Shown here: piece by piece, positions 9,394 through 56,826 of the stretch
Layout of the letters: the number at the start of each line of letters is the position of its first letter
Position numbering within the stretch: the first letter of the stretch is position 1
NCBI GenBank assembly: GCA_037131105.1
Contig: JBAXRQ010000001.1
Span: 637,465-701,464 of the forward strand
Length of the DNA stretch: 64,000 bases
From: a bacterium
Lineage (GTDB): Bacteria; Patescibacteriota; UBA1384; CAILIB01
Direction: 5' to 3'
The notes under the pieces: model-generated
Database searches by the model: none
Seen by the model: only the letters and a program-made list of their open reading frames with translations
What the model was told of the DNA's origin: nothing
Translations under genes and position numbers: made by a program

Positions 9394-9948
9394 TTACGCG
9401 CGCAAGGCCTGCAATATCCGGATGAGGTACTTCAGATGAACGTCTACCTTCCCGTTCATCTTAAGGCAGAAAGCATCGATCATCTGGTGAGTAGCCAAGC
9501 CGTGGAAGCGAATTTCCTCGGTGCCAAGGCCTGTCACCCGGAAGTCGAGCTCAATGTCGTACTTCTCAATCAGATACTTTGCAAGCGCCACTACCCGCTC
9601 AAACTGAAGCTCATTCCCATCAAGATCGGCAGCGTTCTGCCCTTGGATCTCAATGCCGATGCAACTTTCGTTGCCTTCAGCTTTGGCATGCCGGCACCAG
9701 GTATGCGGCTCAGGGACGCACTGGATTATGTCACCATCCGCCATTACGGCAAACTGAACCGACAAAGGCTCGACACCCTCCCGATACAACAGACGGGACA
9801 GGTGCTCAATGCCGCCTTTTTCAATGGGCTCTTGCCACCAGTGAAACACTAAACAGGTCGACTTGATCGTCCTGTCCGGATCCACCCAATGGCATATGGG
9901 CGCCACTTGAATGTCCAAGCCCTCTTTTGGAGTATCCAAATCCCTCAC
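9394..9948 (-). CDS. N-acetylmuramoyl-L-alanine amidase (Amidase_2/PGRP fold)
   Basis: HWW...DGDIIQCVPE...HA...NESCIGIEIQG fits the Amidase_2 profile. Confidence 0.5.
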   Translation of the reverse strand: MRDLDTPKEGLDIQVAPICHWVDPDRTIKSTCLVFHWWQEPIEKGGIEHLSRLLYREGVEPLSVQFAVMADGDIIQCVPEPHTWCRHAKAEGNESCIGIEIQGQNAADLDGNELQFERVVALAKYLIEKYDIELDFRVTGLGTEEIRFHGLATHQMIDAFCLKMNGKVDVHLKYLIRILQALRA

Positions 9949-48444: not shown

Positions 48445-49041
48445 ATGTCGAAAGAGTTACAGATGCGTGTCGGACACGGTGCGCAACCTGAAGTAGGACC
48501 TGCCTGGGCGCCAGTGTGGGTAGCAGAGAACGTTGCAATGCTTCCTTTCCAGTACGCTGCCCAAGCAGGGCACGTACACTGGATCTTTGACCTTGACCGA
48601 GTGCTACTCCCTGCCCCACAGCTGGTGGGACTCAGATGGAGAGTATGCCAGGACTTTTGCCAGGCAATTCATGATGCACAGGTAGCAGGATACATACAGA
48701 ATGCCGCCATTGTCACCAACGTAGCCTTTCCGTTGCCCCAGCTCGTACTTCGCACGAAGTCGGTGGGACGTCAGCTTGGTATTGAGAACATAGTCCGGCT
48801 CTACCTCTACAAAGGAAATATGAAGCCGCATCCCTGGGGTGGTATGCGGGCCATGGAAATGATGGGCTCTACGCCGGATACCACCATATTCTGCGGCGAC
48901 ATGATCAGCAAAGATGGTCTGTGCGCCAAGAGCTGTGGCATTCCATTCGTGCACGTCCAGCCATATGGGCCTAATCCCCTCTGGAAGCAAGCTATCGAGC
49001 AGCTTCCCAGACTGCTACCCGCCCGACGGCGTTCAGCATGA
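48445..49041 (+). CDS. HAD-superfamily hydrolase-like protein
   Basis: WIFDLDRVLL (motif I DxD) and TIFCGDMISKDGLCAKSCG (motif IV GD...D). Confidence 0.5.
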   Translation: MSKELQMRVGHGAQPEVGPAWAPVWVAENVAMLPFQYAAQAGHVHWIFDLDRVLLPAPQLVGLRWRVCQDFCQAIHDAQVAGYIQNAAIVTNVAFPLPQLVLRTKSVGRQLGIENIVRLYLYKGNMKPHPWGGMRAMEMMGSTPDTTIFCGDMISKDGLCAKSCGIPFVHVQPYGPNPLWKQAIEQLPRLLPARRRSA

Positions 49042-49325
49042 CATCGACGCACTAAATGAGCGTCACCAACAAGAACTTCTGGGAAGAGGCACGCACCTGC
49101 GGCCTCTTCTTTCAGTTAAGCCCCTGGTAATAAAATAGTGCTCAGAGAGGCTTGACGGTCGCTTCCGCCGCCTTTCGCTTCGTATTGAAGCGGCGTCGGA
49201 GCGCTGCGCTAACCCCGCTCTTTGCTCCGCAAAGTTTGGTTTTGGCGTGGTGCTCGTGCTCCTGGTATTTCCAGGAAGCGGTGGAGCAGGGCGGAACTCC
49301 TCGGGTTCAAACCTCCTTCACGGAC

Positions 49326-49361
49326 AAACAAAAAGACCCACTAAAGTGGGTCTTTTTGTTT
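49326..49361. terminator. perfect 16-bp-stem hairpin (A/U-rich) followed by a copy of the tRNA-Pro 3' terminal 16 nt
   Basis: aaacaaaaagacccac-taaa-gtgggtctttttgttt, then tggtcggggagagagg, which is the same sequence as the 3' end of the tRNA at 49523. Confidence 0.5.
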
Positions 49362-49486
49362 GGTCGGGGAGAGAGGCCAAACGGTTAGTCCTCGCTGCCG
49401 CGCCGACAGCACGGGTTGATCCGCTCGGACACTAGCCGCCCCTCCCGGACCGGCGTCGCCTACGGTTCAAATCCTCTTACCGTTAC

Positions 49487-49523
49487 AGAGAAAAAGAACC
49501 AACATAGTTGGTTCTTTTTCTCT
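49487..49523 (-). terminator. perfect 17-bp-stem hairpin abutting the CCA end of tRNA-Pro(GGG)
   Basis: agagaaaaagaaccaac-ata-gttggttctttttctct; identical to the copy at 56108-56144. Confidence 0.6.
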
Positions 49524-49599
49524 GGTCGGGGAGAGAGGATTTGAACCTCCGGTCTCAGGACCCCCAGCCCTGCGCATTAGGCCACTATGCTACTCCCCG
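49523..49599 (-). tRNA. tRNA-Pro (anticodon GGG), CCA encoded
   Basis: Manual cloverleaf: acceptor CGGGGAG/CTCCCCG, D-arm GCAT-AGTGGCCTA-ATGC, anticodon arm CAGGG-CTGGGGG-TCCTG, variable loop AGACC, T-arm GGAGG-TTCAAAT-CCTCT, discriminator A, then CCA. Confidence 0.8.
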
Positions 49600-49846
49600 A
49601 GGTGAACGCAGACGAAAACGTGTTTTCGGCTATGTGAGCCGAGGGGTCTTGCATACAGAGTATGCTACTCCCCGAAGCGAGATAGAAAAGAAAGCTAGCT
49701 TTCTTTTCTGTGAGCGAGGGGATCCGCCGTGCGAAGCACGGTGCTACTCCCCGCTGTTTGTCATTGGCGTTTCGACGAGGGGATGCTTATCCGTAGGATA
49801 AGTCCCCCGAGCCTGTTTAACACCTTTAAGAGTAGCCGTTTTTCCT

Positions 49847-50767
49847 TTATTTGGCAATTATATCCTTCAACTCCTCCGCCCTGGCCTTCATAATCTTCCT
49901 CTGCCCCTCTACCTGCGCCTTTTGCTCCTCCACCAGTTCCAGCCTCTCCCTCTCATTCTTCTCCAAGATACCTATTTTCTCCGCCAACTCCTCGTGCCCG
50001 CTCACCCGCCGGAAATCATCCGCTTTCATAAGGACCTCGAACCTGTCGTAGCGTCGATCAGTAAACGCCACCATCCCGTTCAGGCAGTATTCCCAATACC
50101 GCTGTGACAGCATTCCCGCCTCATAGTAACTGGGATCCGAGATCACCAAGCCGTATTTAGCCTGCGCATAAAGCTCCTGCAATTCGTTAAAGGTAAGTCG
50201 TCCCCGCATCTTGGGGCCCTCGCCAAACACCGGCGACGAGCTGACGATGGCCGAAACGTACGCATTCTCAGGATTAAGGTAGTCAAGGTAATCGATATCC
50301 CGGCTCCCGTCTCGCTTACCGCCGCCGTAGACCAACTGCAACGCCTTGGTCTCGCCTGAGTGATCCAGAAGATAGAGCACCACCGCCCCCTCAAAGCCCG
50401 CATACAGAAAGTCGGACCGATCTGACTGGGGAATCTGGGTTAGCTTGAGGTGCGGCCCCAGTACACTGTCTGGGATGACCAGGTTAAGGTCGGAGACCAT
50501 TTGAAAGATCTTGACTCCCCGCTCAATCAGACCTTCTGCCTGCCCATGAAAGCTGGGGTTACAGTTGTTAATGAGCACCGTGTCCCCGGATCGTAGCTCC
50601 TCCGCCCCGTCGATGGGTTCGGCACCCAGATAGTCCACACAGTAGCGCAGCTCGCTCATTCCCCCGAACGTGGTAACATCCCCCTTTGACTGCAAAAGCT
50701 CGCGCAGCTTAGCGCCGGGCTTCCAGATTTTAAGACTCATAGTCGTATGAATAGGTATGCTTGGCAT
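49847..50767 (-). CDS. hypothetical protein with a C-terminal coiled coil
   Basis: 306-aa ORF (alternative start at 50740, MSLKIW); no confident family. Confidence 0.4.
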   Translation of the reverse strand: MPSIPIHTTMSLKIWKPGAKLRELLQSKGDVTTFGGMSELRYCVDYLGAEPIDGAEELRSGDTVLINNCNPSFHGQAEGLIERGVKIFQMVSDLNLVIPDSVLGPHLKLTQIPQSDRSDFLYAGFEGAVVLYLLDHSGETKALQLVYGGGKRDGSRDIDYLDYLNPENAYVSAIVSSSPVFGEGPKMRGRLTFNELQELYAQAKYGLVISDPSYYEAGMLSQRYWEYCLNGMVAFTDRRYDRFEVLMKADDFRRVSGHEELAEKIGILEKNERERLELVEEQKAQVEGQRKIMKARAEELKDIIAK

Positions 50768-55479: not shown

Positions 55480-55983
55480 ATGAACTACACCTACTGCCCC
55501 CAGTGCAAACACCCCCTGGAAACCCGCAAGAATTCATTCTACTGCCCCAGCTGTGACCTGGAGATATATCAGAACTCCAAGCCGTGCGTGTCGGTGCTTA
55601 TCGTCAAGGACGGGAAGGTACTATTGGCCAAACGCGGGATTGAGCCATATAAGGGGAGCTACGATACGGTAGGCGGGTTCCTCAAGTATGGCGAACCAGC
55701 CGAAGTCGGCGCCTTACGCGAGACCAAGGAAGAGACCGGACTTGACGTGCGTCTCATTGAAATACTGGGGACCTACATCAACCAATACGGCGAGAACGGC
55801 GTCTACACACTCGATGTGGACTTTATCGCCGAAATAACCGGCGGTGAGATGCAGGCGCAGGACGATGTGGCAGAACTAGAATGGGTGGACATCCACGACA
55901 TTCCGTTTGAGGAGATCAGGTTTGCCTCAGCGAAGAAGGGGTTAGAGGATTTGCAGAAATGGTACGAGGCAAAAAATAGCTAA
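55480..55983 (+). CDS. NUDIX hydrolase with an N-terminal zinc ribbon (NudC-like)
   Basis: CPQC...CPSC ribbon, then Nudix box GGFLKYGEPAEVGALRETKEETGL. Confidence 0.75.
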   Translation: MNYTYCPQCKHPLETRKNSFYCPSCDLEIYQNSKPCVSVLIVKDGKVLLAKRGIEPYKGSYDTVGGFLKYGEPAEVGALRETKEETGLDVRLIEILGTYINQYGENGVYTLDVDFIAEITGGEMQAQDDVAELEWVDIHDIPFEEIRFASAKKGLEDLQKWYEAKNS

Positions 55984-56107
55984 TAGTGGGAATAGATTAA
56001 TCGGTTAATCCTCGCTGCAGCGCCGACAGCGCTGATGGCTTCCGCTCGGACACTAGGACCGCCTCCCGGCGGGCCGTCGCCTGCGGTTCAAACCCTCTTA
56101 CCGTTAC

Positions 56108-56144
56108 AGAGAAAAAGAACCAACATAGTTGGTTCTTTTTCTCT
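56108..56144 (-). terminator. perfect 17-bp-stem hairpin abutting the CCA end of tRNA-Pro(CGG)
   Basis: Identical sequence to 49487-49523. Confidence 0.6.
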
Positions 56145-56220
56145 GGTCGGGGAGAGAGGATTTGAACCTCCGGTCTCGGGAACCCGAATCCCGCGCATTA
56201 GGCCGCTATGCTACTCCCCG
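56144..56220 (-). tRNA. tRNA-Pro (anticodon CGG), CCA encoded
   Basis: Same acceptor, D- and T-arms as the GGG copy; anticodon arm CGGGA-TTCGGGT-TCCCG. Confidence 0.8.
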
Positions 56221-56826
56221 GAGAGAACGTCGGGGAAAGCTTGCTTTCACCGATGTGAGCGAGGGGAGGTGCCCACCGAAGGTGGGTGCTACTCCCCGAG
56301 GAGAAATGATGGCGGCCATGCTTGCATGGACATCAGCATTTCGACGAGGGGATGCTCGTCCGTAGGACGAGTCCCCCGAAGCGAGTTGTATTCGGGAAGG
56401 TGGGTGCTACTCCCCGACATTGTATTTTGAAGGATAAGTCCCCCGAGGCGATATTAGAAAGAAGGACTATTTACTCGAGGTACTCGTCTGCCCCGTGGCG
56501 CTACTCATAGACAACAGCAGCGAAGCACCCATTAACCAAATGGAAACTATTACCACCAAAATAATAACCAGCGCCTTTTTCATAATCCCGGCGACATAAA
56601 ATAAAAAGAAGGTGGCTTATCGCTAGAGCGTAGGCGGCCCTAATGGCCAAGTGGGTACTCTCACGCCCGCTCCACGGAGCCGGCAAATATCGAGTTCCCG
56701 TAATACATGAATTGATGACCACCTACGACAGGATAAGCCGCTTATAGAGTACCCTATTTACCCCTCTGTGGCAATCGATCAATACACTGTGTTTACCCCT
56801 TCCCTGGCACTTGCTATACTTATGGA

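Follow-up and report, generated by a model that had tools for sequence, protein, structure and literature searches.

What are the tandem, palindrome-rich repeats that precede a proline tRNA gene in a Patescibacteria genome? The 64,000-nt stretch analysed here (the window) carries tRNA-Pro(GGG) on its minus strand, within a block of hairpins and repeats that an earlier note had read as miniature tRNA-5'-half-like transcription units with terminator-like stems of their own. On balance, the block is likely to be the transcription unit of tRNA-Pro, whose 5' leader is derived from the tRNA and is unusually elaborate, and the repeated units (modules) are probably a selected, co-transcribed leader RNA and not junk. 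They are structured, apparently under selection, narrow in distribution and visibly in flux.

Tandem modules at two tRNA-Pro genes

The tRNA-Pro(GGG) gene was called on the minus strand by both ARAGORN and Rfam, in agreement with the earlier note, and 12-14 nt of its 5' end repeat upstream at 75-79 nt spacing. The 12-mer CGGGGAGTAGCA occurs exactly at the tRNA 5' end (49588-49599), at 49663-49674 and at 49742-49753, with three further occurrences at a second tRNA-Pro locus; at no more than one mismatch, seven matches were found in the window against 0.42 expected. Identity between the proximal module (U1) and the tRNA reaches 14 nt. Between 49100 and 49900, the minus strand reads in the order promoter-like site, U3, U2, U1, tRNA, hairpin, element X-A, a 16-nt copy of the tRNA 3' end, hairpin A and X-C (Table 1). 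The note had described three units of ~75 nt that start with the tRNA 5' sequence and end in TCG(G)CTCACA plus a second palindrome. This holds for two of them, but the distal U3 begins CGGGGGACTTATCC, ends CCCCTCGTCGAAACGCC and has no second palindrome. Both quoted palindromes (49613-49628 and 49684-49709) were found at these positions, and each module folds as claimed (z = -2.6 to -3.2). The note had recognised the array at tRNA-Pro(GGG) (locus 1) and overlooked a near-identical architecture at tRNA-Pro(CGG) (locus 2). No modules were found in the 64-kb window beyond these two loci.

All eight modules known from three genomes share a two-hairpin plan; those of the window are prefixed W1_ (locus 1) or W2_ (locus 2), and those of relatives are L070_a, L070_b and L065_a. 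Exact segmentation gives, in order, preceding nt, an outer 5' strand (GGGG or GGGGAG), an internal loop (AGUA or AGUAGCA in type I modules, GA in type II), a perfect inner stem of 6-8 bp with a 3-nt loop (UUC, UAC, UCU, AGA or UAU), 2-5 nt, an outer 3' strand (CCCC or CUCCCC), a tail (UCG(G)CUCACA in type I, UCGUCGAAA in type II), a second hairpin (HP2) of 5-6 A/U-rich pairs with the loop CAAG in most cases and CACG or CUAG in others, and a linker of 10-17 nt to the next module or the tRNA. In type I, the first hairpin (HP1) opens with the first 12-14 nt of the tRNA, which span the 5' strands of the acceptor and D stems together with U8-A9. W1_U1, L070_a and L070_b share the inner stem GCAU.../...AUGC with the tRNA, where it is the D-stem, and L065_a has it as GUAU/AUGC; the W2_U1 clamp, GGGGAG/CUCCCC, reproduces the acceptor stem over 6 bp. 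At three of the four loci, and in four of the six type I modules, HP1 looks like a tRNA-Pro lacking positions ~26-67, that is, an acceptor clamp plus a D-arm-like hairpin. The type II paralogues U3 and W2_U2 differ by two double compensatory stem changes (UA to CG).

The putative transcript of 343 nt, from the putative start to the terminator, folded with z = -8.3, each module forming an independent domain and the tRNA cloverleaf remaining intact. A register-shift attenuator, in which a C-run would pair with the next G-run, was rejected on this fold, which is dominated by the drawn hairpins. UUCG or UACG (UNCG) tetraloops were likewise ruled out: the loops are 3 nt by exact segmentation, so the argument from an RNA-specific tetraloop was dropped. 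Peptide coding was also rejected, as the substitutions between W1_U1 and L070_a in the sole AUG frame are, by eye, all non-synonymous and coincide with compensatory stem changes.

Homologues in relatives and probable transcription as a leader

The 774-aa gene adjoining locus 2 served as a marker, and relatives were reached via its homologues, which are named Patescibacteria; the identities given below are those of the marker protein. Modules were found in two of these relatives, so that the search for homologues in related genomes proposed by the earlier note had a positive outcome. L070 (55%) carries two modules upstream of its tRNA-Pro(GGG), and L065 (52%) carries one. Module a of L070 is 94% identical to W1_U1 over 70 nt. 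The two differ by one inserted inner-stem base pair, by the replacement of a G-C pair with A-U at the foot of HP2 and in their loops; the single-stranded segments UCGGCUCACAUAGCC and GUCUGCGUUCACCU are identical in both. When 49100-49900 and 55950-56800 were compared with L070, only the tRNA, one module and segments of a non-coding RNA (ncRNA, see below) aligned. In L065, the tRNA 5' end reads CGGAGAG and the module clamp has shifted to GGAGA/UCUCC. Its module contains three G.U pairs, with the inner stem kept through two U.G wobbles, all of which would be A.C on the opposite strand.

In a structure-guided alignment of the eight modules, which was fitted to the structure by hand, padded with N and held in register by artificial anchors, and whose eight rows come from three genomes and include several paralogues, 130 of 130 stem cells were standard pairs and 13 of the 20 pairs had changed on both sides. 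None of 500 shuffles reached any of the measures, and slid controls paired at 34-64%. As far as sequence comparison goes, pairing is shown to be maintained in the tRNA-sense strand, as expected under selection. The copies with compensatory stem changes in L070 and L065 bear out the note's view that the modules are not random intergenic DNA and speak against decaying debris.

The remaining relatives have no modules. These are L061 (49%), which has tRNA-Pro(CGG), and L067-69 (48%) and L062 (47%), which have tRNA-Pro(GGG) and also no X. Since the tRNAs of these relatives at 47-49% are nearly identical to those of the window, the modules look like an innovation of a subclade.

The relatives were sought through the marker gene because large pattern scans had found no true copies beyond the same organism. 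A scan of genome contigs with the pattern CGGGGAGTAGCAN{6,36}CCCCTCG gave 50 matches, none with a CTCACA tail or a good inner stem; four that were inspected (L014, L015, L017 and L037) have no tRNA nearby, and the one in L037 lies in an apparent coding region. With the CTCACA tail required, metagenome contigs yielded only the same organism (L057) and two chance matches. Both large scans used exact patterns and are blind to diverged copies. Scans of viral contigs with two module tails and with the tRNA itself gave no matches, nor did blastn match the array or the X region to any of 50,697 phage records. A synteny search through the glycosyltransferase-like neighbour returned homologues at 47-57% identity, none of which adjoins a tRNA.

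The position of promoter-like motifs points to the modules as part of the tRNA transcript. The motif TTGnnn-17-TA[C/G]T[C/G]T occurs at five sites in the window. One of them, TTGCCA-17-TACTCT, precedes U3 and overlaps the stop of the glycosyltransferase-like open reading frame (ORF); an identical hexamer pair (56746-56774) lies immediately before the conserved ncRNA of locus 2; and, by inspection, two of the three remaining sites are upstream of ORFs. In L070, TTGTCA-17-TACTGT lies 24 nt before the first module (a), and in the module-less L062 and L067, TTGAAA or TTGATT-17-TAGTGT lies 16-29 nt before the tRNA itself. A regular-expression (regex) scan found no such motif between modules. A promoter within the modules was rejected by eye, because the tRNA-derived TAGCAT hexamer has no acceptable -35 element at 16-18 nt. 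As the motif stands only before the first module, and directly before the tRNA in module-less relatives, the modules are most likely a transcribed 5' leader. We infer that they were inserted between promoter and tRNA.

A possible course of events can be outlined from the anatomy of the sequence. The tRNA gene and its flanks would have been partly duplicated in tandem, yielding one to three modules of ~75 nt, and one sigma-70-like promoter upstream of the first module would drive transcription of modules and tRNA together. Each module starts with an acceptor-strand mimic in an interrupted helix of 10-12 bp, so RNase P may cut there as it does at the tRNA; the leader could then be chopped into hairpin RNAs and the tRNA freed. 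Any benefit is speculative and most likely in cis: the leader might insulate the pre-tRNA, stabilise it or set it apart from genes upstream on the same strand. Each of the four loci with modules has an ORF on the same strand that ends a short way upstream, and the upstream gene is divergent in the module-less L062 and L067.

Weighing the proposed leader against other explanations

Several points weigh against a selected leader. The pairing statistics are inflated by an alignment that was fitted by hand, N-padded and anchored, and the sample is small and non-independent (eight modules from three genomes, several of them paralogues). The 94% identity could be due to recent horizontal transfer or gene conversion instead of constraint. 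Perfect stems with 3-nt loops fit palindromes at the DNA level equally well, and the only strand-specific evidence is that one module has three G.U pairs. In the -10 hexamers, just three of six positions agree with the consensus, a generic promoter scan found nothing, and the promoter motif is absent beside the modules at locus 2 and in L065; at these two loci, a small conserved ORF for a membrane peptide precedes the modules, and upstream transcription may drive them. HP2 of U2 could terminate some transcripts. Co-transcription, cleavage by RNase P and any benefit are inferred. Turnover is evident from the truncated module starts at 56396-56445, from copy numbers of one to three and from a module order that varies among genomes. 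Together with the absence of modules in relatives at 47-49% marker identity, this turnover marks the modules as dispensable for tRNA-Pro as such.

The same turnover and narrow distribution, along with an evident origin by tRNA duplication, are what neutral debris would leave, namely decaying, functionless partial tRNA-Pro pseudogenes that slippage or unequal crossing-over creates at a locus prone to repeats. We regard this explanation as unlikely, since 94% module identity persists at 55% marker identity where, in the two stretches compared, nothing else aligns but the tRNA and ncRNA segments, all stem positions pair in eight of eight modules with compensatory change at 13 of 20 pairs, and the clamp of the L065 module co-varies with the altered tRNA 5' end.

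A bolder form of the leader reading, which we hold to be distinctly unlikely, is that stable ~75-nt 'mini-tRNA-Pro' RNAs released by RNase P act in trans, for example as decoys or regulators of a toxin, enzyme or phage factor with specificity for the acceptor and D-arm region of tRNA-Pro. If so, a Patescibacteria clade would possess its own, new class of small-RNA genes derived from a tRNA, and their 5' strand identity to the tRNA would be kept by selection for mimicry and not by gene conversion.

The earlier note's proposal that each module is an independent miniature gene, with its own transcription unit and a tRNA-5'-half-like small RNA ending at the second hairpin, was not supported. No promoter-like motif separates the modules, and the 10-17 nt linkers are too short for one, the sole such motif at the array lying upstream of U3. 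Of the three HP2s measured, two fold weakly (-4.7 and -9.9 kcal/mol) and show no U tract by inspection, most HP2s lack such a tract, and U3 has no HP2; the second hairpins do not combine a stable G+C-rich stem with a U tract in the manner of intrinsic terminators, the exception being the extended version in U2. That hairpin, a 26-nt perfect A/U-rich palindrome of -12.2 kcal/mol with a partial U run and flanking A/U runs like those of genuine tRNA terminators, speaks for independent genes, as do the discreteness, similar size and structural autonomy of the modules. Efficient termination at HP2 would, however, leave the tRNA promoterless. Independent genes are accordingly quite improbable, and with no motif between modules, short linkers and weak HP2s, co-transcription as a single leader is the better reading.

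Elements acting as DNA, whether recombination or attachment (att)-like sites, protein operators or mobile repeats of the repetitive extragenic palindromic (REP) or miniature inverted-repeat transposable element (MITE) type tied to recombinase elements, appear very unlikely. The stems do form perfect palindromes around centres of 2-3 nt, integration in this lineage uses the tRNA 3' end, and GTAG stands beside a palindrome in the repeats, as in REP elements. But integration occurs on the opposite (3') side of the tRNA, at junctions with just CGACCA in common; neither locus of the window has a recombinase or transposase gene nearby; and there are no copies elsewhere in the 64 kb. Moreover, stem sequences differ wholly between modules while pairing is kept, which argues against a sequence-specific protein site, and the G.U pairs of L065 would be A.C on the other strand.

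A guide-RNA or antitoxin array processed by a dedicated protein, comparable to tandem interspaced guide RNA (TIGR)-Tas repeats or to type III toxin-antitoxin RNA repeats, is extremely unlikely. The units here are tandem hairpins, conserved at their edges and variable inside, in a Patescibacteria genome, and TIGR stem-loop arrays do have variable palindromic stems (PMC12045711), but this candidate was rejected because no Nop-domain, nuclease, toxin or other partner gene lies near either locus, the neighbouring genes are not the same at the four loci with modules, the variable part pairs with itself and is not made of two 8-12 nt spacers with box C/D motifs, and merely one to three units are present, always abutting a tRNA.

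If the modules are a selected leader, partial tRNA duplications can become structured, evolving RNA modules instead of decaying, and even Patescibacteria genomes of ~1 Mb retain elaborate non-coding architecture at tRNA genes. The modules would then offer a compact natural test case for acceptor-stem mimics in pre-tRNA processing and a candidate for a new Rfam motif.

The flanks of the tRNA genes and known systems

Table 1. Features of the two tRNA-Pro loci, with positions in the window.
Feature	Position	Strand	Description
tRNA-Pro(GGG)	49523-49599	minus	Locus 1; CCA encoded; ARAGORN; Rfam RF00005, 60.7 bits
Promoter-like site	49829-49857	minus	TTGCCA-17 nt-TACTCT; regex scan; 17 nt upstream of the first module (U3)
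Module U3	49754-49809	minus	Type II, distal; C-GGGG-GA-CUUAUCC-UAC-GGAUAAG-CAU-CCCC-UCGUCGAAACGCC...; no second hairpin
Module U2	49675-49753	minus	Type I; HP1: CGGGGAGUAGCA + CCGUGC-UUC-GCACGG + CGGAU-CCCC; tail UCGCUCACA
HP2 of module U2	49684-49709		Perfect 26-nt A/U-rich palindrome; -12.2 kcal/mol
Module U1	49600-49674	minus	Type I, proximal; HP1: CGGGGAGUAGCAUAC-UCU-GUAUGC-AAGA-CCCC; tail UCGGCUCACAUAGCC
HP2 of module U1		minus	GAAAAC-AC-GUUUUC; linker GUCUGCGUUCACCU
Hairpin after tRNA-Pro(GGG)	49486-49524		Perfect, 18 bp, A and U tracts; directly after the tRNA; -28.8 kcal/mol, z = -9.4
X-A	49377-49485	minus	~110 nt; starts AGAGGAUUUGAACC; strand assigned only from G.U pairs
16-nt copy of tRNA 3' end	49361-49376	minus	CCTCTCTCCCCGACCA; within direct repeat D1
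Hairpin A	49326-49361		Paralogous to the hairpin at 49486-49524; -27.3 kcal/mol, z = -8.0
X-C	49140-49325	minus	Diverged third copy; like X only at the start (UGUCCGUGAAGGAGGUUUGAACC) and the end (GACCGUCAAGCCUCUCU)
tRNA-Pro(CGG)	56144-56220	minus	Locus 2; ARAGORN, Rfam; same layout as locus 1
Module W2_U1	56221-56298	minus	Type I; upstream of tRNA-Pro(CGG)
Module W2_U2	56299-56378	minus	Type II; paralogue of U3
Truncated module start	56431-56445	minus	CTCGGGGGACTTATCC
Truncated module start	56396-56416	minus	CGGGGAGTAGCACCCACCTTC
Terminator hairpin	56107-56145		Identical to that of locus 1; after tRNA-Pro(CGG)
X-B	56003-56106		83% identical to X-A

The neighbouring genes at both loci are housekeeping genes, including those for D-Ala-D-Ala ligase, TyrRS, NUDIX and HAD proteins (Pfam scans of 20 ORFs). 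Between the 774-aa gene and the tRNA-Pro(CGG) block lies a structured RNA of ~130 nt (56610-56745, minus strand), preceded by the promoter-like site mentioned above. Its sequence runs GGCUUAUCC...GUGGUCAUC...CCCACUUGGCC...GAUAAGCC, and it is present in seven relatives; in L061, tRNA-Pro(CGG) follows it within 35 nt. Of the 40 pairs in its consensus fold, 13 show compensatory changes; U.G pairs that never vary point to the minus strand, and a U run comes after the terminal helix. Rfam gave no match to this ncRNA, even at E <= 5. The inner stem of the type II modules, CUUAUCC/GGAUAAGC (49770-49800 and 56340-56370), equals the closing helix of the ncRNA (56737-56745 with 56610-56618). Given this common stem and the same promoter hexamers before U3, the type II hairpin may be a collapsed copy of the ncRNA, although a single 8-nt match makes this a lead and nothing firmer. 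A hydrophobic ORF of 38 aa (MKKALVIILVVIVSIWLMG..., 56467-56583, minus strand) separates the ncRNA from the modules of locus 2. As read from the sequence, a comparable small membrane ORF comes after the ncRNA in L065, and a 115-aa gene (9408-9755) comes after it in L070. The short-read contigs L061, L064, L065, L066, L051 and L052 end in, or ~150-470 nt from, the tRNA-Pro/ncRNA region, consistent with repeats and near-identical tRNA-Pro paralogues breaking assemblies.

On the other side of tRNA-Pro(GGG), the hairpin directly after the tRNA and its paralogue, hairpin A, both join a stable stem-loop to a U tract, as intrinsic terminators do. Their U-rich 3' arms and tails and A-rich 5' arms suggest, from the folded models, that they are bidirectional and intrinsic-terminator-like. 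A simple terminator consensus scan listed neither, probably owing to the position of the T run inside the long stem. Hairpin A and the adjoining 16-nt duplicate of the tRNA 3' end are both present, as the earlier note had reported. The 16-mer occurs three times in the window against 0.07 expected, and the copy beyond the tRNA is contained in D1, a direct repeat of 47 nt with 79% identity at 162-nt spacing. Judged by this repeat pattern, a 162-bp segmental duplication of the tRNA 3' end, the terminator and X is shown to account for the 16-nt copy.

The start of X-A, AGAGGAUUUGAACC, is the exact reverse complement of the T-arm/acceptor 3' segment of the tRNA. This 14-nt inverted copy beyond the terminator is perfect at locus 1 (49464-49477 against 49534-49547) and has one mismatch at locus 2 (56085-56098 against 56155-56168); a diverged version starts X-C (49303-49316). 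Because X starts with the reverse complement of the tRNA, a long hairpin can form that takes in the terminator together with the tRNA 3' end and the beginning of X; it measures ~90 nt and gave -55.5 kcal/mol and z = -9.6. X-A and X-B differ by four compensatory pairs, and X folds no better than shuffles. No homologues of X were found in the relatives, the phage records or Rfam. A plus-strand tRNA-like gene in X was rejected: its T-stem has only 2 bp, and there was no ARAGORN call, no Rfam call at the gathering score and no match with a significant E-value.

The tRNA 3' end is also a site of integration. In two sibling-strain contigs, L051 and L059 (sample ERZ27300165), foreign DNA stands exactly between ...CCCCGACCA and the terminator. 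The insert is absent from the window (compared at 49486-49530) and represents a strain-level polymorphism. Where its ORF meets the tRNA, the ORF end shares 75% identity with the C-terminus of a large serine recombinase of L067, which has Resolvase, Recombinase and Zn_ribbon_recom domains, and recombinase genes abut the tRNA likewise in L067 and L070. All junctions share only CGACCA. As far as these sequences tell, the tRNA-Pro 3' end is a real bacterial attachment site (attB) of large-serine-recombinase elements in this lineage. By reading of the sequence, the L051/L059 element has an XRE-like helix-turn-helix ORF at one end, the recombinase-like sequence being at the other. The recombinases at tRNA-Pro(GGG) all end in ...GRGERI and a stop (L051 4197-4406; L067 1603-3150; L070 3293-4888), and the final codons GGT CGG GGA GAG AGG ATT TGA read as the antisense of the tRNA 3' end (window 49523-49547), so that the C-terminus of the integrated recombinase would be supplied by the host tRNA across the junction.

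Comparison with databases and described systems sets the modules apart. Rfam over 48800-50100 (E <= 10) returned the tRNA itself as the sole RF00005 match; at locus 2 (E <= 5), the modules were overlapped only by a sub-threshold Tymo_tRNA-like match (56351-56441, plus strand, opposite to the modules; 14.4 bits where the gathering score is 40, and E = 3.3). The two full tRNA-Pro genes are all that ARAGORN and Rfam call, and the modules, which retain only the first 12-14 nt of the tRNA and an acceptor-like 3' strand, are neither tRNAs nor tRNA pseudogenes by these calls. Literature searches turned up no comparable modules. TIGR-Tas arrays, which have been described from phages and parasitic bacteria among others, bear a superficial likeness as stem-loops with variable palindromic stems, but each of their units has two 8-12 nt spacers flanked by box C/D motifs and the arrays adjoin a Nop-domain Tas gene (PMC12045711). 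The modules, in contrast, are tied to a tRNA gene and have no dual spacers, box C/D motifs or Tas gene, and Pfam scans of the 20 neighbouring ORFs found no Nop domain. REP elements with their associated tyrosine transposases (RAYT) and MITEs were checked as well, and the window showed neither other copies nor a transposase nearby.

The repeats that integration leaves at the 3' end of att tRNA genes resemble the 16-nt copy in its downstream position and direct orientation, and the site is one that large-serine-recombinase elements use. Of the att-site interpretation in the earlier note, the tRNA 3' end as an integration hot spot stands; the 16-nt copy itself, however, lies in the 162-bp duplication, with 146 bp, comprising only the terminator and the 110-nt X-A and no gene, between the 16-mers. 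The duplicate also runs through the terminator into X, which makes it look like a segmental duplication, and since the integration junctions share CGACCA and not 16 nt, a serine-recombinase event would leave the 16-nt duplication unexplained.

Bacterial RNase P also accepts hairpin (minihelix-type) substrates, such as pre-4.5S RNA and the C4 RNA precursors of phages P1 and P7. HP1 resembles these in its 10-12 bp in total, in a 5' strand that is the tRNA acceptor strand and in the single-stranded linker before it, and differs in that its helix is broken by an internal loop of 1-7 x 2-5 nt and its 3' side reads UCG and not RCCA; on this modelled geometry, HP1 is compatible with an RNase P substrate.

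A close parallel is the Escherichia coli tyrT operon, whose 178-bp repeats contain the last ~19 nt of tRNA-Tyr and are the source of rtT RNA (RF00391). Rfam gave no match to this family at the gathering score, at E <= 10 (locus 1) or at E <= 5 (locus 2). In both systems, tandem repeats inside a tRNA transcription unit each carry a terminal fragment of the adjacent tRNA, here 5'-end segments 75-79 nt apart upstream and 16 nt of the 3' end 162 nt downstream, and the likeness would extend to origin by partial duplication, co-transcription and processing at tRNA-like ends. The downstream 162-bp duplication of the window is the direct analogue of the tyrT repeats, whereas the modules lie upstream, measure ~75 nt, carry the tRNA 5' end and a D-arm-like stem closed into a clamp hairpin, and display compensatory evolution across genomes.

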